Positions 2,680 to 47,420 of a stretch of DNA of 54,623 bases are shown in pieces. Made by a program: the position numbers and the translations under genes. How positions within the stretch are numbered: the stretch's first letter is position 1; every line of letters starts with the position of its first letter. The stretch is taken from the IMG/VR virus record IMGVR_UViG_3300042471_000954, positions 1 to 54,623 of that record; one strand, written 5' to 3'. The notes below the pieces were generated by a model. The model saw nothing but the letters and a program-made list of their open reading frames with translations. It searched no databases and was not told the origin of the DNA. The DNA comes from a virus. Its lineage: Duplodnaviria > Caudoviricetes.

Positions 2680-3594
2680 TCAGGCGGTCATTGCAGCATC
2701 GGTGATGCCGTAAGCACGGGCAGCGGATCTGCCGTTCATGATTGCAATACCGACCGACCAATCAATGCGGGTACGATCGACTGGTGCATCAGGGACTTCC
2801 CCGAATGACTTGATGTCAATCCCGTAGCCGCCGGCTGAATCAGGGCCCTGCATACCGGTTACTTGCTGATCGCCATAGGCGACGCAGTAAACACTGGTGG
2901 TGCTACCGGCTTCCGTAAAGCCTTGAATCGGCACGTTCTGAGCATTGGTGTCGGTGACCACAATGCGTGTGTCACCGTAGGAGGTGACCAGCTTGCCGAA
3001 CTCATCCCGCGTGGTGGTCAGGAAGCCACCGATAGTGCTGTTGCGGCTAGCGGCAGTAAGGCGCCGACGCAGTGCTTTACCCATGTGGACAACCTTGTTG
3101 TCGCCATCAACGGCGTCAATAAGTTCATCCAATCGGGAAAGCGAGAATGCACCGCCGACGTTGATAGCTTGAGAGCTGTCAACGTTGATCCGCTTCCTGA
3201 AGCCGTCGAACGCACGGGGATCAACCGACTCATCGCCGTTGATCATGTAGTCTTCAAGGGTCAGCCGCAAAGAGCGAACTTTAGCCTCGATTTGCTGGGC
3301 CCTGGCTTGAGTGCCCTTGTTCTTGATGATGTGCATGTCCACATCAATGTCCCCGCCGAACATCTTGAGTCGTTCGTATTGGGGGTTGATGACACCGTAA
3401 GTGGCATCATAGGTTTCGTTCAAACCACGAAACCCAACACCGGGCAGTTCATCTTCAGTGGCATAGTCCAAGCCGCCTTGCACATTGGCAAACGGCAGAA
3501 GGCGAATCATCTCGCTTTCGGCGAGAGCGCGAATAACGACCACCCGTTGCTGATTGGTATCAGTCTTGGCGGCCTCCAGAAGTGTCAGTCCCAT
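2680..3594 (-). CDS. major capsid protein (HK97 fold)
   Basis: 304 aa, MGLTLLEAAK...GGDIDVD...INGD...FDG; downstream of scaffold. Confidence 0.85.
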   Translation of the reverse strand: MGLTLLEAAKTDTNQQRVVVIRALAESEMIRLLPFANVQGGLDYATEDELPGVGFRGLNETYDATYGVINPQYERLKMFGGDIDVDMHIIKNKGTQARAQQIEAKVRSLRLTLEDYMINGDESVDPRAFDGFRKRINVDSSQAINVGGAFSLSRLDELIDAVDGDNKVVHMGKALRRRLTAASRNSTIGGFLTTTRDEFGKLVTSYGDTRIVVTDTNAQNVPIQGFTEAGSTTSVYCVAYGDQQVTGMQGPDSAGGYGIDIKSFGEVPDAPVDRTRIDWSVGIAIMNGRSAARAYGITDAAMTA

Positions 3595-3628
3595 TGTGGG
3601 GAATCCAGGTGAAGGTCAAGGGAGGGGT

Positions 3629-3702
3629 GGCATCACGCCAAAAGGACACCGCAAGGCATCACGCCGAGCTGCTTGATTTGGGACCGACTTAGGCATCACG
3701 CC
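3629..3702 (-). repeat. three copies of GGCGTGATGCC hairpin in MCP leader
   Basis: GGCATCACGCC on + strand at 3629-3639, 3655-3665 and 3692-3702; a fourth copy at 4582-4592 lies just upstream of the scaffold ATG. Confidence 0.85.
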
Positions 3703-3757
3703 ATCAGTCGATCCCTGTTGTCCGATGTTTCCCCGATCCCTAAGCCGTCAGCAGAGA

Positions 3758-4573
3758 TCAACCAAAGGCGTCTGAAAACGCGGCTGGAAGCGGTTGATTC
3801 ATCAGGTCTTTACCTGTGCTGACGCGACCATCACGGCTGCTACGTGCCCCGCCGCCGGTTCCCATCGCGGGCTCAAAGTTGCGCCCCCACACAGGATCGG
3901 ATTGCAGCCGCCGGAGCCACTTGACGGGCTCAAAGCGCTTGCCGGTTTCCGGGTCGATCTCTGGGCTGCCGTTGGCATCAACGACCACAAGTGCGCCGTC
4001 TTCATTGCGGAACTGAGGGCCAAAGCGGCTCCAGACCGAATCAAAGGGGGTGCTGCCGTCGATTTCGGATACCTCGGTGGATCCTTTGGCGCCGATGAAG
4101 GCCTTCTCGGCTAGCTGCCGTACCAGCTCGCGCTGGCGGGCCTCCCGTTCGGCCTGAAGGGCGGTTGTGGATGCTTCCAACTGCTGCGAGTATTTGGCCT
4201 CGATCTGCTGTCGCTCCAGGGCCGCCTGCTGCTCGATCAGCTCCCGTCGTGCTTGCTCCTGCTGAGCTTTGGCCTGTGCCTCGCGTACCGCCTCAGGGTT
4301 GGTGGTGGTCAGTTCCCGCAGTTGAGCTTCCAGGGCCCCGAGGCGGCGATCCTTCTCGCGGTTGGCAGTGCGTTCACGGTCGAGGGTGTGACGCAGCCGA
4401 GTCACATCGTCTCCGTCCCCCTCGCTATCTCCAGTGCCAGCAGCAGGGTCAGTAGCGCCCTGGCTTGCACCGGCTCCAGCAACTGCACCACCACCTGCAC
4501 CAGCACCGCCGCCGCCCTCGCTGCCACCCTCAGGGCTCTGGAGGATGAACTGTTCAAACCATCGCTTGTTCAT
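3758..4573 (-). CDS. capsid scaffolding protein
   Basis: Gly-rich N-terminus, long coiled coil, C-terminal GTGGGA motif; directly upstream of MCP. Confidence 0.75.
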   Translation of the reverse strand: MNKRWFEQFILQSPEGGSEGGGGAGAGGGAVAGAGASQGATDPAAGTGDSEGDGDDVTRLRHTLDRERTANREKDRRLGALEAQLRELTTTNPEAVREAQAKAQQEQARRELIEQQAALERQQIEAKYSQQLEASTTALQAEREARQRELVRQLAEKAFIGAKGSTEVSEIDGSTPFDSVWSRFGPQFRNEDGALVVVDANGSPEIDPETGKRFEPVKWLRRLQSDPVWGRNFEPAMGTGGGARSSRDGRVSTGKDLMNQPLPAAFSDAFG

Positions 4574-4759: not shown

Positions 4760-6096
4760 ATAGTGATACCAATCTGGCTGAGCCGATCACGGCAATAAGT
4801 GCCGCCGTGGTAGTCATAGGCAACGACCATCCGAACAGGCTCGGGTTGATTTTCTGCGTTCGGTCCCGGCCTCTGGTCAAGTTCGTCATCCAGCCCAGCG
4901 ACAAGCATTTCGCTTGTTATCAGCTCGGTAACGCTTGCGTCAGGAATAATGCCAAAAACCCCTATTTCTGTTGTGGGTGTGCTTGCGACTGATGGGTCAT
5001 CGCGCTTGTAACCCAAGACAGGGATTTCTGGGTTTCCACTGTATTCGGCGAATGATGCCTTCGCTTGCTGTGGTGACTTTACACTAAAGGTTCCATCGGG
5101 GGCAATGCTTTCATAAATCACAGAGGAAACACTGTTGAAGCTTATTCGATAAGGGCTGTCAGGCGGTTGTGGCAAACCCAGCTCTGTAGCAACATAAGGG
5201 TTGGGATGGTTGATCTGATAGGCACCAACAGCCGACTGAGATAAAGCCAACTCCATGCGAACATCAGGATTCAGCGGATTGTAACCAAGCGCAATTCCGC
5301 CCGCTGCGTTTTCGGCCAGTACAGAGTCTATCTTTTTTTGCATAAACGCAGGAAGGGGCTGCGTCAGCTCAACAACATCAGACTCAGTTACCAGGAAACA
5401 GGTGCGCGTTGTGTTTTGTATCGTAAAGTTATTAGGAGAAAAAACAACTGGACCGAACCCCAATCGTTCATACGCATAATTGCGATGATACTGAGCTATA
5501 GAAACGACGAGTATCATATCTGACTGACCAGCGGGGAGCAGGTTCCACCAAAGCCTTGCGCAAAAGTTGTGGGTGCCACTCCCAAATGTCCGTTCTTGCA
5601 CGAGTATTATGGGCAGCAGACCGTTTTCTATCTGGGTCCAAGTTTTTTCAAAGACATCGGTTCCCGTGCCGGTAAATGTCAGGCTATGCCTAAACCGCTT
5701 CCACCTTTCGCCTGATCTGGCCCCGACTGTAACAACAAACTCTAGCGAAGCGCTTGCGGATCCTTCGGTTGTTCTTCTTTCGTAACTAGGGGATGGGTTG
5801 TTCTCGTCCGCGTCAGTTGCATTGGTAATCTCTAACTCATTTGTAATAAGAGTGTAGTTCTTTCCAATGTGCAACCACCCCACTCCCACATCAACTTGGC
5901 CTCCAGGGACAAAACTAGGCTCATCCCTCCTCCTGCTTATCAATGGCGCCGGAGCCAAGGCCATCTCCCGTCTCAGCGTTTCCTTAGACCAGTCCAGCCC
6001 CTTCTTCGCCTTCTTCGCCCGGTTCTTCAGGATCCGGGCCTTCACCAGGTCCAAGATCTTCCAAGGCACCGGGTTGATGTCAACGATCAGGCTCAT
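4756..6096 (-). CDS. putative tail-tip/receptor-binding protein
   Basis: 446 aa at end of tail operon; GC-rich 5' part and visibly AT-richer beta-rich body. Confidence 0.55.
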   Translation of the reverse strand: MSLIVDINPVPWKILDLVKARILKNRAKKAKKGLDWSKETLRREMALAPAPLISRRRDEPSFVPGGQVDVGVGWLHIGKNYTLITNELEITNATDADENNPSPSYERRTTEGSASASLEFVVTVGARSGERWKRFRHSLTFTGTGTDVFEKTWTQIENGLLPIILVQERTFGSGTHNFCARLWWNLLPAGQSDMILVVSIAQYHRNYAYERLGFGPVVFSPNNFTIQNTTRTCFLVTESDVVELTQPLPAFMQKKIDSVLAENAAGGIALGYNPLNPDVRMELALSQSAVGAYQINHPNPYVATELGLPQPPDSPYRISFNSVSSVIYESIAPDGTFSVKSPQQAKASFAEYSGNPEIPVLGYKRDDPSVASTPTTEIGVFGIIPDASVTELITSEMLVAGLDDELDQRPGPNAENQPEPVRMVVAYDYHGGTYCRDRLSQIGITI

Positions 6097-22989: not shown

Positions 22990-23163
22990 ATGCCTGAACC
23001 CGACTTTCGCGCCGCCCTGCAGCAGCTAGCCGATGCTATTGACGGGAGTGAGATCAGGTTTCCAAAGTACGACTGGCATGGGCAAGAAGGCACGTGGTTT
23101 CCCGAGCCAACCCACTGGCACCCCCTCCCCAGCCCACCGACCACCCCCAACCCCCATGCTTGA
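22990..23163 (+). CDS. small hypothetical (DFRA family, DUF551-like tail)
   Basis: MPEPDFRAALQQLAD...EPTHWHPLPSPP; ACCACCACCGACC leader. Confidence 0.55.
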   Translation: MPEPDFRAALQQLADAIDGSEIRFPKYDWHGQEGTWFPEPTHWHPLPSPPTTPNPHA

Positions 23164-23503
23164 CGCCAACACCCCCGCCTTCCGCCAGCAGTACCCCAAC
23201 GGCGCCAACGTCTACGACCGGCTGGGGCGCCAGTTGCGCGGCGTGGTGGCCTGTGACCCAGAGACGGGAGAGGTGATCACCTGCGACATGGGGTGGATCG
23301 CCAAGGCTTGGCTGAGGGTGCTGTGGGCCAAGGATCCATTCAGTCATGCTTACCGTTGGCGCCTGGGCCGGCTGCGGTTTCCATCAAGACTGCCCCGCTA
23401 CGAGGTAGTAAGTGGCGAGATCCTGCGCCGCCACGGCTTCCACCCCGCTCCGCTGACGGTCAAGCCCTGTCAGTGGCTTCACATCGGGATTGACAACCAC
23501 TGA
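23156..23503 (+). CDS. hypothetical protein
   Basis: MLDANTPAF...; overlaps upstream stop. Confidence 0.55.
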   Translation: MLDANTPAFRQQYPNGANVYDRLGRQLRGVVACDPETGEVITCDMGWIAKAWLRVLWAKDPFSHAYRWRLGRLRFPSRLPRYEVVSGEILRRHGFHPAPLTVKPCQWLHIGIDNH

Positions 23504-30932: not shown

Positions 30933-31176
30933 GGGCCACCTCCTGCACGGTTTGCCCTGCCCCCGGCGTGTGGCACCCCACCCCGTCAAGCCAATCGGCC
31001 ACCTGGGAGGAGCCCCCGTGACGCTCCCTGAGCATGATGGCCAGTTCGTGGGCGACGGCGGCGGAGTCGCGGCGGCAGTCGCTGCAGATCGCCCCGACCG
31101 GGCATGGGCCGCCGGTTGGGCAGGCGCCACGGCACACCGCCAGGGCCAGGCGATCGGCGGGGGTGGGGTCAGGCAT
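30925..31176 (-). CDS. Cys-rich hypothetical protein
   Basis: MPDPTPADRLALAVC...C..C..C; overlapping coupling. Confidence 0.55.
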   Translation of the reverse strand: MPDPTPADRLALAVCRGACPTGGPCPVGAICSDCRRDSAAVAHELAIMLRERHGGSSQVADWLDGVGCHTPGAGQTVQEVAHD

Positions 31177-31423
31177 TGGCCCTCTCCAGCTCGGCGGCGA
31201 TGGCGAGGATTCGGGCGCGCGTCTCTTGCCGTTGCGTTCTGCGGAGGTACTCACATAGCGAGTCGTCCTCAGAGCAGTAAGGCTCATCCGGCACCACGTG
31301 ATCCGCAGCGGCACGGAGGGCGGCGGCGGCAATGATTCGGCGCCGCTCAAAGCCTGGGAGGCTGGCAACTTTTAGGATGGCGGCTTCAACCGCCTGCGCG
31401 GCGGGGGAGAGGGGGTGGGTCAT
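31169..31423 (-). CDS. hypothetical (LSPAAQAV family)
   Basis: MTHPLSPAAQAV...AAAALRAAADHVVP...ILAIAAELE; C-terminal part of track ORF 31169-31765. Confidence 0.55.
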   Translation of the reverse strand: MTHPLSPAAQAVEAAILKVASLPGFERRRIIAAAALRAAADHVVPDEPYCSEDDSLCEYLRRTQRQETRARILAIAAELERANA

Positions 31424-36472: not shown

Positions 36473-36964
36473 TCATGCGCTGGCCTCCCGTGGCAGCTCC
36501 AGCCCCAGCCGCTCCAGGGCCTCCACCACATCAGCCAGCGAGGTCACACCGAACCGCTTGATCCGCAGCAGATCCGCAGGGGTCAGGTTCAACAGGTGGT
36601 CTACCGTGCTCACCCCTGCCCGCTTGAGGGTGTTGTAGGCGCGGACGGTGCGGAGGTCTAACCGCTCGATCGGCACCGATGCCACGGTGGGCTCCGGGGC
36701 TGGCTGGGTGCTTTCCTGCACCTTGGCGGCAATCAATGCCTCCAACCGAGCCTCAACCTGATCTAGCCGGGCAGCCGTGCTAAGCGGTGCTGGTTCTGCA
36801 GCCACAAGGGATAGGTGTTCGCCCGTCCAGACTTTTTCCTGGGTGGTGAACCGGAACCCGCAGGCTTTGCAGACGCAGCGGCGCCGCTTGGCCTGTGCCT
36901 TGGGTTGATAGCGGGACTCAATGACCCGGTGGCCAATGGCTCCGCATTCGGGACAGGGGATCAT
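36473..36964 (-). CDS. NrdR-type Zn-ribbon fused to RNA polymerase alpha C-terminal domain
   Basis: CPECG...VIESR...RRRC.C..CGFRFTTQE plus IERLDL.TVRAYNTLKRAGV.TV..LL....DLLRIKRFG..SL.DV...L. Confidence 0.85.
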   Translation of the reverse strand: MIPCPECGAIGHRVIESRYQPKAQAKRRRCVCKACGFRFTTQEKVWTGEHLSLVAAEPAPLSTAARLDQVEARLEALIAAKVQESTQPAPEPTVASVPIERLDLRTVRAYNTLKRAGVSTVDHLLNLTPADLLRIKRFGVTSLADVVEALERLGLELPREASA

Positions 36965-39218: not shown

Positions 39219-40358
39219 TCAAACCTCAGCCCAGTCAACCCGAACCGCCGGGTGCAGCGTCCCCTCAGCGATGGCGCGGGCGGCGGCGGCGGGATCCATG
39301 GTGGTGAGGGTTGCGGTAAGGGCAGCAACAAAGTCATCCCGGCGCTGCTGCTTGGCCTCCTCAGCCCTGGCAGCCGCCTCCCGCAGTTCCGCCTCCATCT
39401 CGGCCTGCTGCTTGACGCGAGCCTCTTCCCGAGCGGCTGCCTCCTCAGCCCGGCGCTCCGCCTCTTCCTGCGCAAGGCGAGCCGCCTCCACCTGAGCCAG
39501 TGCATGAGCTTCGCGGGCGGCGATTGCTTCCCGTTCCTTGCGTGCCTGCTCTTCGGCTTCCGCAGCACGCTTCTCTGCTTCCAGTTCACGGGCCAGGCGA
39601 TCGGCCTCCACGGCCTCCTGCTGCAACCGCGCAATGCGGTCGGCCTCCTCACGGGCTGCCTTCTCGGCGCGTAAAGCCTCCAGCTCCATGCGCTCAGCTT
39701 CCTGGGCAGCCAGGGTGTCGTGCAGGGTCTGCAGCCGCTCCAGGGCCTCAGCGCAGCGGTTGGCGCCAGCTTCGCTGAACTCCTCCAGCGTGGTGGGGTC
39801 GATCGTGCCTAGCTCTTTTATGCGGTCGTAAGCGTCTGAGACGGTTTCAACCCCTTCGGTGAGCGCAGCAATGCGATCCAGGACGGCCCGGTGCGCTTCG
39901 ATGCGGGCCTCTTCCTTGGCTTCAATCGCCTTAATGGCCGTTTCGTGGGGCTCGATCAGCCCTTGAACGGCTGCTTCTAGGAGCTTGGCGCTTTCATCTA
40001 CGGCTTTGCCGCGCTCTATGTGAACCGCCTTGGCGTCCTTCCTGGCTCGCTCAATCTTGCCCTTAAGGCCACGCAAGCCGTGGACGTAGGAGCGGGCTTG
40101 TCTGTTGTCCCACTTGTCGTCGTAGTCAAAGACCTTGCCGGGGGCCTCTCCTTCGGCAATGGCGATGTCGCAGGCGATTGCTTCCCATCGGGTGATCGCC
40201 TGCGCTTCGGCTGCCGGAACGATGGCGGCCTGGGGGGCGGCGGGGGCTTCCGTGGCGGCTGGGGCCTCGGTGGGCAGCACCTCTGCGGTAACGGCTGGGG
40301 GTGCTGCGGTGGCGGCCTTAGCGGTTTTGGCTCTGGTCTTGGTGGTGGTGGCGGTCAT
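39219..40358 (-). CDS. coiled-coil phage protein
   Basis: IERARKDAK...GKAVD..AK pattern followed by a long E/A/R coiled coil; start moved to ATG 40358. Confidence 0.7.
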   Translation of the reverse strand: MTATTTKTRAKTAKAATAAPPAVTAEVLPTEAPAATEAPAAPQAAIVPAAEAQAITRWEAIACDIAIAEGEAPGKVFDYDDKWDNRQARSYVHGLRGLKGKIERARKDAKAVHIERGKAVDESAKLLEAAVQGLIEPHETAIKAIEAKEEARIEAHRAVLDRIAALTEGVETVSDAYDRIKELGTIDPTTLEEFSEAGANRCAEALERLQTLHDTLAAQEAERMELEALRAEKAAREEADRIARLQQEAVEADRLARELEAEKRAAEAEEQARKEREAIAAREAHALAQVEAARLAQEEAERRAEEAAAREEARVKQQAEMEAELREAAARAEEAKQQRRDDFVAALTATLTTMDPAAAARAIAEGTLHPAVRVDWAEV

Positions 40359-40450
40359 GTGGTGGTGATCGTTTCGGAACGACCTAAGTACGATACCATT
40401 TTGAAACCGCAACGGCTTAGGCCAGCGGCAATTCATCACGAAACACCACC

Positions 40451-41098
40451 ATGGCAACCGCTACCAAGACCAAAACCCAGGCCCCTGAGGAGGCCATCAG
40501 CATCAAGGCGCCGGATTTCCGGTTCCTGGAGATCAACATCCGGGGCACGGCCCCCCTCGTCGTGAACCGCTTCTCAGCGAAGGCGATCGAGATGATGCGG
40601 GCCACGCAGGAGGCAGGCAGCGCCGCAAAGTCCAAGAAGGTGCGGGAGCCGAAGGACTTTGATGCCCTGTTTGAGAACGCCAAGCATGTTTCAAACGAGG
40701 GCTGGGAAGGCATCCACGCTGCCGCTTTCCGCAATGGCGCCATCAGTGCCTGCCGGGCTGTGGGCTACAAAATGACCCATGCCAAGCTCGCGTTCAGCGT
40801 GCTGCAGGATGGCTTTGATCGGGTAGACGGCGCCCCGCTGGTGCGCCTTTCCGAGGGAGTGGCTGAGCAGTGGGTGGCTCCAACCCGGAACGCTACGGGC
40901 GTGGTTGATCTGCGCTGCCGCCCGATGTACCGGGAATGGGCTGCCGTGTTGCGCATCCGGTATGACGCGGGGATGCTCAGCTCTAGTGATGTCGTGAACC
41001 TGATCAGCCGGGTAGGTCTTCAGGTGGGCATCGGCGAAGGGCGCCCCGATAGCAAGGCCAGCGCAGGCCTAGGCTTTGGCCTCTTTGAACTTATCTAA
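40451..41098 (+). CDS. stand-alone Cas7/RAMP-like RNA-binding protein
   Basis: RAMP hallmarks: IRGTAPL (beta1), GIHAAAFRNGAISAC (P.S..KG-like helix), RCRPMYREW, C-terminal G-rich loop GLQVGIGEGRP....GLGFGLF. Confidence 0.75.
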   Translation: MATATKTKTQAPEEAISIKAPDFRFLEINIRGTAPLVVNRFSAKAIEMMRATQEAGSAAKSKKVREPKDFDALFENAKHVSNEGWEGIHAAAFRNGAISACRAVGYKMTHAKLAFSVLQDGFDRVDGAPLVRLSEGVAEQWVAPTRNATGVVDLRCRPMYREWAAVLRIRYDAGMLSSSDVVNLISRVGLQVGIGEGRPDSKASAGLGFGLFELI

Positions 41099-41112
41099 CA
41101 ATCGGATTACGT

Positions 41113-42062
41113 GGGCCATGGTTGCGTCTGCTGCCATGGCCTTGCAGGCATGGTGCGGAAGGCGTGTCCGGGGCTCGCAAGGGTTGACGCGGCAGGCATG
41201 GCCCGGTCAGGTCGGAACGGCCAAGCCGGGAGGGCGTGGCAGGCACGGTGTGGCAGGGGAGGCCAACCATGGTCGGGCCGGGAACGGCAGGCATGGCTTC
41301 GAGGGGCTTGGCGAGATCTGGACTGGACGGGCACGGCAGGCATGGCTTCGGAAGGCACGGCCAGGCCAGTTCTGGCAGGCAAGGCGTGGTCAAGCGTGGA
41401 AGGTCTGGCACGGCTGGCTAGGTGTGGTCGGGCTAGGGCAAGGCACGGCTGGCAAGGTCTGGTGGGCACCTCTGGCGGGGCATGGCAGGCGAAGCAACAA
41501 GGGCATGGCTGGGTCTGGTGTGGCAGGGTGCTGCAGGCATGACTAGGCGCGGAAGGACAGGTTCGGCAGGCAAGGCAGTGGTGGCAGGGCCAGGACCGGA
41601 CTGGCAGGCGTGGCACGACGTGGCGTTGAACGGCGGGGTTGGCAGGCACGGAGTGGCGAGGTCAGGAGCGATCGAGGCACGGCATCGGACGGCAGGCATG
41701 GTCAGGAAGGCAGGGATCGGCAGGCAAGGAAAGGCGTGGCCTGGACAGGCGTGGCTGGCAAGGCGAGATCTGGCGCGGAACGTCTGGCGCGGCACGGCAG
41801 GCATGGCACGGTCTGGATGGGTAGGGCACGGCAGGACTGGCTAGGAAGGCCTGGCGGTGTACGCCGTCGCAGGCTCGGCGTGGCTCGGCAAGGCGCGGCA
41901 TGGAAGGGCATGGCAGGCAAGGCAAGGAACGATCGAGGATCGACCGGGCGTGGCGCTGCTGGCCTCGCTTGTTGGCGCAAGGCACCGCACGATGCGGCTC
42001 AGCTTGCGTGTTGCGATTGCCAAATGGCAGCAGAATGGGGGCTTGAATGGGCCCCCTCATTC
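41113..42062 (+). ncRNA. putative guide-RNA array of GG(C/T/A)NN pentamers in ~20 units delimited by GGCWGG
   Basis: Example 41872-41915: GGCTC GGCGT GGCTC GGCAA GGCGC GGCAT GGAAG GGCAT GGCA. Bounded by hairpins at ~41113-41141 and ~42033-42062. Periodicity is directly visible; RNA status is inferred. Confidence 0.65.
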
Positions 42063-42077
42063 CTATCCCCTGAACCC

Positions 42078-42635
42078 ATGGATTTCATCAAAGCTGAACC
42101 TGAATACGTCTTCCGAATTGAGGATGGCGAGGAAGCGATGGGCGTCGATGCTCAGACCGCTGGCAGCGAGCTAGACCGCATCCGGCGGCGTGATGGCACG
42201 ATCCGCCCTGCTGTGGTGGTTGACGAGGCCAGACCGGAGCAGGCACCGCTGCATCCGGCGTTCGAGTGGCGCGACCCGGTGGCTGCTGAGCAGTGGCGCG
42301 AGCATCAGGCCAGCACGCTGATCAAGGTGGTGCGGGTGGTGCCTGCTGCTCCTGTGGAGCCCCGCGTGGCCTCGGTGCGGCCTGTCACCCAGCCGGTGGC
42401 CCCGTTGGTGGAGCGCTACGACCCGATGGCTAAGGAGGTGCTGGAGGCCGTGGGCTTGGTGGTAGAGGCCCGCCGCAGGGTTGAGGAGCTGAAACTACGC
42501 ACCCAGCGCATGGGTGATCGCAAGTCGATGGCTGTCCTAGGAGTGGCGTTTGGGATGCTCGATGAAGCCCATGAAGCGCTGACCAACTGTCAGCTCAGTA
42601 GCACATGGGAGCGAGAACTACAGCAGGCCCGGTGA
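42078..42635 (+). CDS. conserved phage protein, partner of the RAMP/array locus
   Basis: G.EL.RI....G.I.P..VVDEARP...PLHPAFEW.D..AAEQWR..QA..LI; start moved to ATG 42078. Confidence 0.75.
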   Translation: MDFIKAEPEYVFRIEDGEEAMGVDAQTAGSELDRIRRRDGTIRPAVVVDEARPEQAPLHPAFEWRDPVAAEQWREHQASTLIKVVRVVPAAPVEPRVASVRPVTQPVAPLVERYDPMAKEVLEAVGLVVEARRRVEELKLRTQRMGDRKSMAVLGVAFGMLDEAHEALTNCQLSSTWERELQQAR

Positions 42636-42654
42636 GACTGGAACAGAGATCGAG

Positions 42655-42678
42655 GGGGCCGTGGTTGGCCCCTTTTTT
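42655..42678 (+). terminator. rho-independent terminator closing the RAMP operon
   Basis: GGGGCC-GTGGTT-GGCCCC-TTTTTT. Confidence 0.85.
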
Positions 42679-42704
42679 ATGAGCGGCTCAACGGTGACCG
42701 GGGG

Positions 42705-42980
42705 TCAGAGGTGATCGCTGGCCCGCTCCATCCACGCCTCGGCGTAAGCCTGCACCTCGGCCAGCTTGCGGAACATTTCCGCCCGCTCGTCTCGGGCCTG
42801 CTGCCAGGCAGCATCGCCCTGAGGGTAGAAGTCGCGGGCGTTGCAGGTGGCGGCCTGGAGGGCATCACTGGCCCTGTCGATGGCCCGGTAGACGGCGTGG
42901 TACTCATCGGCCAGGGACTTGGCCCCGGTGCCGTTGAGGTGGATCGTGGGGAGGGCGTAGGCGGTGCTGGTGGCGGGCAT
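42705..42980 (-). CDS. hypothetical protein
   Basis: LPTIHLNGTG...NARDFYPQG..AWQQAR.ER. Confidence 0.65.
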   Translation of the reverse strand: MPATSTAYALPTIHLNGTGAKSLADEYHAVYRAIDRASDALQAATCNARDFYPQGDAAWQQARDERAEMFRKLAEVQAYAEAWMERASDHL

Positions 42981-46904: not shown

Positions 46905-47152
46905 GGGAAGGTCGGTGGTGGTGTTGCCAGAGCCTGGCCGTAGGGCTGTCCCCTGGCTTTGCAATTCTACCCCATGCCTAAGCCGTTTGGGAACCGCAAC
47001 GGCTATGCTGCCCACGTCAGCCGCTTCGCCTACCCCTATCGCGTTATGCACTTCCTGCATATTCGTTAGGCTTTCGCAACATACTTGCGAGATTAAAGGG
47101 CCTTAACTGCATCCCCGTAGCAATTCTGCTGCAGCCCGAGGCATATGCTTGC

Positions 47153-47168
47153 GGGGGGGGGGGGGGGG
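47153..47168 (+). repeat. G16 homopolymer tract
   Basis: 16 consecutive G. Confidence 0.9.
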
Positions 47169-47201
47169 CTGGAGTGTACTTCCACCACGCCGTTTCGCAG
47201 A

Positions 47202-47420
47202 ATGTCAACCCCCCCGATCCGCATCCACGCAGCAAATCAGGAGCAGGCCGATACCGTTTGGCGTGCCCTGTGCGAGCAGACCGCCATCACCGAGGCTGAG
47301 GTCTGGCTAAATGGCGCCTACCTGTTCCACGTGGTCAGGCACGGCGGCGGGATGCTGACAACTCAGCGTGAAGCTCAGCCGGTCCATACTCCCCTTCCGG
47401 TAACCCTCTTAGCTGCCTGA
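47202..47420 (+). CDS. small hypothetical protein
   Basis: MSTPPIRIHAANQEQAD...; 3' end overlaps the repressor-like gene. Confidence 0.45.
   Translation: MSTPPIRIHAANQEQADTVWRALCEQTAITEAEVWLNGAYLFHVVRHGGGMLTTQREAQPVHTPLPVTLLAA

Follow-up and report, generated by a model that had tools for sequence, protein, structure and literature searches.

Positions 41143-41935 of the viral DNA analysed here very probably hold a guide-RNA array of the VIPR (Viral Interference Programmable Repeat) kind, carried by a siphovirus-like lake phage. VIPR is a newly described RNA-guided DNA-recognition system that has been proposed, in the accessible parts of 2026 preprints, to pre-date CRISPR. Membership in this system is concluded from three features taken together, namely a Vipr homologue, the GGYNN grammar of the repeats, and the linkage of gene and array on the same strand. 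The original prediction, which was made from the array letters and took each unit to be an individually processed guide, was right in kind, as a Vipr homologue adjoins the array and the repeats follow the published VIPR grammar. Moreover, the NNx gapped reading it had proposed for matching guides to targets is exactly the published VIPR pairing rule. Both the VIPR kind and the staggered architecture are already known, as far as the available portions of the 2026 preprints go, while possible novelties are the consensus of the NGCA junction, the very short length and the turnover of the cassettes, and the family of the accessory protein. The features discussed below are the following.

40451-41098, plus strand: vipr gene with a 215-aa product (phrog_4652), the presumed binder of the array RNA
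41143-41935, plus strand: staggered vrRNA array of about 25 cassettes, made of GG(Y)NN pentamers with 4-nt NGCA or GGCT delimiters
41796-41829, plus strand: 34-nt cassette (GGCA and six pentamers), present or absent as a block among relatives
42037-42056, plus strand: G+C hairpin with a conserved 8-bp stem, between the array and the next gene
42078-42635, plus strand: candidate vap (vipr-accessory protein) gene, predicted product of 185 aa (phrog_15946)

The window and its phage

The window, by which we mean the whole stretch of DNA that was analysed, is the whole of a virus record with 54,623 bases in a single contig. Among its genes are those for a large terminase, a portal, a Mu-F-like head protein, and a helicase. 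Among isolates, the nearest relatives of the portal are found in Synechococcus siphoviruses and cyanophage PSS2 (35-38% identity). The closest Vipr among species genomes (95%) was located on a contig of 8 kb from a MAG that carries the label Synechococcaceae. Near-identical DNA is present in lake and freshwater metagenome runs, including a 1,772-nt contig in run X4 that is identical to window positions 40559-42330 and pieces in run X7 that are likewise identical to the window. The phage is siphovirus-like and from a lake, and its hosts are probably picocyanobacteria. The array is located in the early/replication part of the genome, near the helicase gene.

Two further observations concern other parts of the record. 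Positions 36473-36964 (minus strand) encode a 163-aa protein in which an NrdR-like zinc ribbon (E 3.6e-10) is combined with the C-terminal domain of the bacterial RNA polymerase alpha subunit (E 4.4e-15), a fusion that is unusual for a phage and is possibly a transcription factor or a polymerase mimic. An intergenic run of 16 G at 47153-47168 could be either an assembly artefact or a slippage-prone tract.

Period and word composition of the array

The array lies between two plus-strand genes (40451-41098 and 42078-42635) and begins 45 nt past the vipr stop codon. Identity autocorrelation of 41100-41960 gave peaks at lags 5, 10, 14, 19, 24, 29, 33-34, 38, 43, 48, 53, and 58, that is, a mean period of about 4.83, or a period of 5 nt that regularly slips by -1. 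When 41128-41960 was segmented by DP, 136 words had five nt, 33 had four, 3 had six, and 1 had three. The five-nt words start with GG in 113 of 136 cases, after which the third base is C in 74, T in 17, A in 17, and G in 5; GGY thus makes up 91 of these 113 words, and each of the 16 possible NN dinucleotides occurs. The array is degenerate to some extent, with 23 of the 136 five-nt words having no GG and 22 of the 113 GG-words carrying A or G at position 3. Across 98 distinct arrays of the family, GGY accounts for 4386 of 5095 words.

As a control, 41143-41935 was shuffled 500 times with dinucleotide preservation. GG..GG pairs at lag 5 occur 93 times in the array and 35.6 +/- 5.2 times in the shuffles (maximum 52), and their density per 100 nt is 11.73 in the array versus 0.94 elsewhere in the window. 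The predicted GG-based period of 5 nt is hence borne out by autocorrelation, segmentation, and shuffling alike; the three clean units that had been spelled out after 41719, 41796, and 41868 were correct as written, and the NN strings do differ among units, with all 16 dinucleotides in use, unlike those of a homogenised satellite. Rfam at gathering thresholds returned no match over the whole window, nor did a scan for tRNA and tmRNA. Other period-5 signals in the window (31112-31194, 47110-47207, and 23080-23174) were rejected as arrays; they consist of G-rich coding sequence and the G16 run.

Punctuation and cassettes

The pentamer register is reset about 25 times by 4-nt NGCA or GGCT words, far more often than in the shuffles (GGC[AT]GGC was observed 16 times, versus a shuffle mean of 1.87 and a maximum of 7). 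The junctions comprise 22 of the form GGC[AT]-GG and 3 of the form NGCA-GG (the hyphen marks the boundary), and each of them gives a -1 register shift. Of the 20 boundaries named in the original prediction, 17 coincide exactly with GGC[AT]-GG sites and the remaining three (41143, 41532, and 41868) are TGCA-GG or CGCA-GG. Its resets were placed correctly, and its count of about 20 units rises to about 25 with additional boundaries at 41252, 41507, 41522, 41583, and 41709.

The junction can be read as an overlap of one nucleotide, GGCA[G]GCNN, in which a guide usually closes with the repeat GGCAG, whose final G doubles as the first G of the next guide. Because this G is shared between neighbouring guides, the boundary appears as a 4-nt GGCA word together with a -1 register shift. 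The Fig. S18 legend of the discovery preprint (10.64898/2026.04.26.720920) describes, as far as it goes, 'staggered vrRNA arrays' in which adjacent vrRNAs overlap by 1 nt, and by its letters the 4-nt punctuation seen here matches that architecture.

In-register runs in the window span 1-9 repeats, and those called as guides have 4-9; per cassette, 2-9 in-register repeats are counted. According to the available text of the same preprint, the authors' array caller requires at least 4 units per vrRNA and the characterised type II vrRNAs have 9-16 (10.64898/2026.04.26.720920); the called runs of the window reach the former value and fall below the latter. In the 98 distinct arrays (38.4 kb), the register is broken by GGCA (451 times), CGCA (140), GGCT (51), GGAA (40), and TGCA (36). 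The in-register runs of these related arrays have a modal length of 7-9 repeats and reach 19, and the long ones end in GGCAG almost always. Between the cassettes of the window, no non-repeat spacer and no structured 3' tail like the conserved pseudoknot of each type II vrRNA were seen, and the sole conserved non-repeat stretch follows the whole array.

The neighbouring Vipr homologue

By profile comparison, the product of 40451-41098 is a Vipr homologue of the RAMP kind. A profile of 91 Vipr-family members (A1) searched against the PDB gave a single match, 36pp 'SUSP1 Vipr protein' (E 2.3e-6). When the same profile was aligned with the SUSP1 protein ALH47069 by hhalign, a probability of 95.6% and an E value of 1.3e-8 were obtained over 170 of 215 columns. 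In this alignment, the G-loop of the family, GIGEGRP...GLGFG (C-terminal), is placed on GVGDWRP of SUSP1, and the acid and Arg of the G-loop as well as the thumb Arg (R157 in the family of the window) are conserved. W178 of SUSP1, which stacks on G2 according to the accessible part of the cryo-EM preprint (10.64898/2026.04.26.720927), is aligned with Gly in the Vipr family of the window. The full RAMP architecture (RRM core, glycine-rich loop, and thumb) is putative for the window's Vipr, as it is read only from the aligned G-loop and thumb Arg.

The vipr gene has a GC3 of 0.76. Pfam assigned no family to the window's Vipr and delivered scattered weak matches for the 91 family members, none of them (0 of 91) to a RAMP family, and PADLOC gave no match for Vipr or for the 185-aa protein. 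The Vipr family is large: 4399 proteins with E <= 0.001 were found among 4738 candidates (90% clusters searched), and they form 2413 clusters at 50% identity.

Linkage of array and vipr across loci

The linkage of array and gene was assessed at 91 loci, which comprise 80 from IMG/VR, 9 from species genomes, and one each from Mycobacterium phage Donkeykong and cyanophage Cy-LDV1. A period-5 GG array on the same strand within 1.5 kb of the gene was found at 83 of the 91 loci (downstream at 71, upstream at 6, and on both sides at 6); of the 8 loci with no array, 4 are cut within 230 nt of the gene. Runs of at least 7 in-register units lie on the strand of the gene in 406 of 409 cases. The array is thus conserved next to vipr across phages of actinobacteria, of cyanobacteria, and of many uncultured hosts. 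When the array itself was used as a blastn query, matches of about 70% over about 200 nt were obtained in eight Mycobacterium phage records, and in the records common to both searches these matches lie directly upstream of a homologue of the 215-aa protein.

Donkeykong (gp48-gp50) and Cy-LDV1 (g34-g33) resemble the window in having a Vipr homologue (32.5% and 53% identity, respectively), a GGC pentamer array with GGCA-GGC junctions, and a homologue of the 185-aa accessory protein. Unlike in the window, the array of Donkeykong lies ahead of vipr, carries a CDS annotation, and is made of cassettes with 11-14 repeats each, whereas Cy-LDV1 has two short arrays.

Several observations on individual records can be added. 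In Donkeykong (L001), positions 3486-3872 (gp48), directly upstream of the Vipr homologue gp49, are a vrRNA array labelled as a 'hypothetical protein' CDS, and the same annotation of an array as a CDS is found in Mycobacterium phages Pippy, Clifton, LastJedi, and Zizzle. The first array of Cy-LDV1 (L002) lies between vipr and the accessory gene and the second (4939-5102) lies past the accessory gene. Three arrays each are present at IMG/VR loci L064, L066, and L070, which are among several loci of that kind.

Variation among close relatives

Homologous words were compared between the window and 8 close relatives (n=470 per position), and differences were found in 2.8% of cases at G1, 3.0% at G2, 12.6% at Y3, 4.9% at N4, and 7.0% at N5. 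A second, independent count, made by a simpler word finder, classed 29 of 47 Y3 differences as C/T swaps. The NN letters are thus less conserved than GG between related phages (5-7% versus about 3% differing), contrary to the equal conservation by which the original prediction was to be judged wrong. In homologous cassettes they are more conserved than Y3, which argues for selection on the guide letters. This pattern of constraint is the expected one if GG serves as scaffold, Y is free to alternate between C and T, and NN carries selected information.

Cassettes are gained and lost as whole blocks between related phages. The 34-nt cassette at 41796-41829 is found in L004, L006, and L083 but not in L007, L039, and L045, and in a contig of run X20 exactly 34 nt (41794-41827) are skipped at this cassette; the position of this cut may slide by up to 8 nt because the flanks repeat. 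A 48-nt block is found, among the relatives compared, in the window and L006 only.

The records behind L003, L004, L006, L011, and L045 (G001-G005) are mosaic genomes that have a Vipr with 82-95% identity and a homologous array. The large terminase of the window (98%) is encoded in G005 only and the other four records have different terminases. Since the terminases differ despite a common Vipr and array, the VIPR module moves between phage backbones.

It was also observed that six of the eight close relatives (L004, L005, L007, L039, L045, and L083) have the vipr stop codon and the array set apart by an additional stretch of about 150-200 nt, which looks like a small, apparently hydrophobic putative ORF. 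This stretch is absent in the window, L003, and L006.

Accessory gene and flanking sequences

A homologue of the 185-aa protein is encoded downstream of vipr on the same strand at 62 of the 91 loci, including Donkeykong and Cy-LDV1. Judged by this conserved position, the protein is a candidate for the vap of a minimal two-gene VIPR locus. It is unrelated to vap1 of SUSP1 in an hhalign comparison (probability 0.4%). It has no Pfam family, and 49 members of the accessory family showed scattered weak Pfam matches only; nothing below E 0.17 was found among PDB sequences, and a search of the Atlas led to unnamed viral clusters only and to no named match.

In the 3' flank of the array, a fold of 41925-42080 contains an 8-bp stem, while the stretch as a whole is not exceptional (z -1.0). 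The stem (42037-42056) is kept in the relatives, and a paired G>A / C>T change is seen in L003. The hairpin possibly marks the end of the array transcript or protects it as a cap. An inverted repeat, GGCCATGG (41114-41121) and CCATGGCC (41134-41141), was spotted by eye in the interval that separates the vipr stop codon from the first cassette; it could form a hairpin at the start of the transcript. In 40200-42800, no sigma-70-like promoter was found, and terminator-like sites are confined to the minus strand, inside vipr.

Target searches and RNA libraries

Several searches for targets were made in related phage DNA. The guides of the window scored at the null level against the window and the 91 loci with skips of 0-2 bases, and a skip of 3 gave only trivial self-matches to the array. 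For the 319 unique guides of all loci, compared with 1.1 Mb at skips of 0-2, the real and shuffled mismatch distributions were about the same. Whole cassettes with flexible gaps, compared with six complete related phage genomes, were likewise at null, as were four-block chains in 1.1 Mb (2.26 million positions, both strands), the exception being one locus that had originally been fetched by the same pattern and is hence biased. The enrichment of gapped NN matches over shuffled strings that had been predicted did not appear in 0.6-1.1 Mb of related phage DNA, a low-power test that covered the window, the 91 loci, the six complete phage genomes, and the loci retrieved as matches.

Exact gapped scans covered larger collections. 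In IMG/VR, a window guide with 18 informative bases had 0 matches and one with 16 informative bases had 28, which is about the rough chance estimate, on contigs with a GC content of 0.32-0.58. Guides with 22 informative bases from Donkeykong, L070, L027, and L066 had 0 matches each. In metagenome contigs, a window guide with 18 informative bases gave 10 unrelated matches.

A second 18-base guide of the window (41290-41334) had 1 match in IMG/VR, at L140 1225-1250 (minus strand), which is the sole exact 18/18 NNx match in that collection. It is in frame with a 392-aa ORF, whose wobble positions are the skipped bases. About 1-2 such 18-base matches are expected by chance, as roughly estimated from the 16-base count. 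No family was found for the 392-aa ORF, the L140 contig had no tblastx match to the window and its relatives, and no other guides of the window converge on it. The match is a lead only, compatible with chance.

That no target was found is explained by the short guides and the low power of the searches (12-18 informative bases). The missing targets are absence of evidence and not evidence of absence, and the genome of the right competitor is needed for power.

Contigs assembled from two RNA libraries hold a portion of vipr and both ends of the array; that they leave most of the array uncovered speaks neither for nor against its expression. They attest presence only, are no proof of transcription, and may stem from DNA carry-over.

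Proposed mechanism and alternative readings

In the available text of the preprints, G1, G2, and Y3 of each VIPR repeat are flipped into protein pockets, and purines are kept out of the pocket for position 3; the target pairs with N4N5, each third base of it being skipped, and the bound double-stranded DNA is silenced (10.64898/2026.04.26.720920 and 10.64898/2026.04.26.720927). By analogy, the array of the window would be transcribed rightwards together with vipr (40451-41098). One Vipr protomer would then occupy each pentamer, as suggested by the SUSP1 structures, sequestering G1, G2, and Y3 and presenting N4N5. The NN letters of successive repeats would pair with double-stranded DNA with every third target base skipped, and binding would silence the transcription of a competing mobile element. 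In the sequences of this clade, a 1-nt overlap separates the guides, in place of the promoters and structured tails of SUSP1, and the -1 register shift may end one Vipr filament or guide and start the next. Individual processing of the units, as originally predicted, is plausible.

A further step is put forward tentatively, and we hold it to be rather doubtful. The NGCA-GG overlap may serve specifically as a delimiter, either by stopping and starting filaments or as a signal for cleavage, and may replace promoters and tails. One transcript would then supply some 25 guides that are very short, with 5-9 repeats and 10-18 informative bases, and whose cassettes turn over between near-identical phages like CRISPR spacers with no acquisition machine. 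The very large Vipr clade concerned, with its 4399 proteins, includes cluster-F-like mycobacteriophages and cyanophages. If this reading is true and if the consensus, the guide length, and the turnover are absent from the supplement of the preprint, the window would represent a mode of VIPR operation in its own right, in which the accessory protein is unrelated.

The alternative that survives best, although it is improbable, accepts a VIPR-type RNA but not some 25 separately cut guides. The whole transcript would instead be coated with short filaments, or many of the units would be decayed remnants or decoys that soak up the Vipr of rivals, with only a few active guides. The short and degenerate in-register runs, the lack of a promoter or structured tail between the cassettes, and the searches that found no targets all speak for it. 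So does an October 2026 preprint, which states in its available part that vrRNAs can act as decoys redirecting Vipr. In addition, the main text of the discovery preprint, as available, names only hammerhead-interspersed and single-vrRNA architectures as confirmed by sRNA-seq, and staggered arrays are not among them (10.64898/2026.04.26.720920). Set against these points are the stronger conservation of NN than of Y3 in homologous cassettes and the sequence-specific cassette boundaries across the 98 arrays. Moreover, the boundaries of staggered arrays are drawn by the preprint authors, in the Fig. S18 legend, as those of processed vrRNAs (10.64898/2026.04.26.720920).

Far less probable, and in our judgement very unlikely, is an action of the G-rich strand through nucleic-acid structure (an R-loop or two-tetrad G-quadruplexes), which would prime replication or block antisense transcription independently of guides. 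Such a role would fit the GG at every fifth nucleotide, the strong excess of G over C on the sense strand (387 G and 202 C of 861), and the position in the early/replication region with a helicase gene nearby. It leaves unexplained, however, why position 3 is C or T, why NN is hypervariable, why the NGCA punctuation is present, and why the array is linked to Vipr on the same strand at 83 of the 91 loci, while the published VIPR mechanism, in the parts available, covers all these features.

That the array encodes a protein, as annotated for Donkeykong gp48, where it lies under a CDS, or is a functionless slippage satellite can practically be dismissed, as the ORFs of 120-180 aa that overlap it do so mechanically, all six frames of the array contain stops (1-4 each), codons do not fit a 5-nt period with -1 slips (a conflict that the original prediction had pointed out for the period itself), a homogenised satellite would not have NN strings that differ among its units, and conservation beside vipr extends across actinobacterial, cyanobacterial, and many uncultured-host phages.

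Comparison with known systems

With the guide-array reading, the window adds to the known VIPR systems a staggered array that is long and tail-less, from an uncultured lake phage with structural genes most similar to those of Synechococcus siphoviruses. The VIPR module is widespread, mis-annotated as a protein-coding gene in Mycobacterium phages, and evolving by cassette gain and loss. The NGCA-GG junction offers a testable signal for the delimitation of guides with no tails, and, for annotation purposes, period-5 GGC arrays beside phrog_4652 genes should be labelled as vrRNA arrays and not as ORFs.

The closest described counterpart is the type II VIPR of Escherichia phage SUSP1, at whose locus GGTNN repeats with tails were found to flank two genes (195 aa and 146 aa). 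Like the window, it is phage-borne, has a Vipr homologue beside GGYNN pentamers on the same strand, and consists of a two-gene locus with long non-coding flanks. According to the accessible description, SUSP1 has four separate vrRNAs with about 12 GGT-rich repeats each and a structured tail of about 40 nt each, and each vrRNA apparently has its own upstream region, whereas the roughly 25 short cassettes of the window form a single continuous, GGC-rich array and lack tails. The window further differs from SUSP1 by the Gly at the position of W178 and by its unrelated accessory protein. The 'staggered vrRNA arrays' of the discovery preprint share with the window and the 98 related arrays the one nucleotide common to adjacent guides, a likeness that is drawn from the legend alone.

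Class 1 CRISPR-Cas systems resemble VIPR in that RAMP protomers (Cas7 on the crRNA) polymerise along the guide and flip bases periodically, as stated in the available part of 10.64898/2026.04.26.720927. They also resemble the window in having an array of cassettes that differs by gain or loss of whole units between close relatives. Unlike CRISPR-Cas, the window has no Cas1/Cas2 or other cas genes among the 10 genes scanned and no repeat-spacer structure. Its specificity letters alternate with the scaffold at a spacing of 5 nt, the array is encoded by a virus, and the Vipr protein has no PADLOC match.
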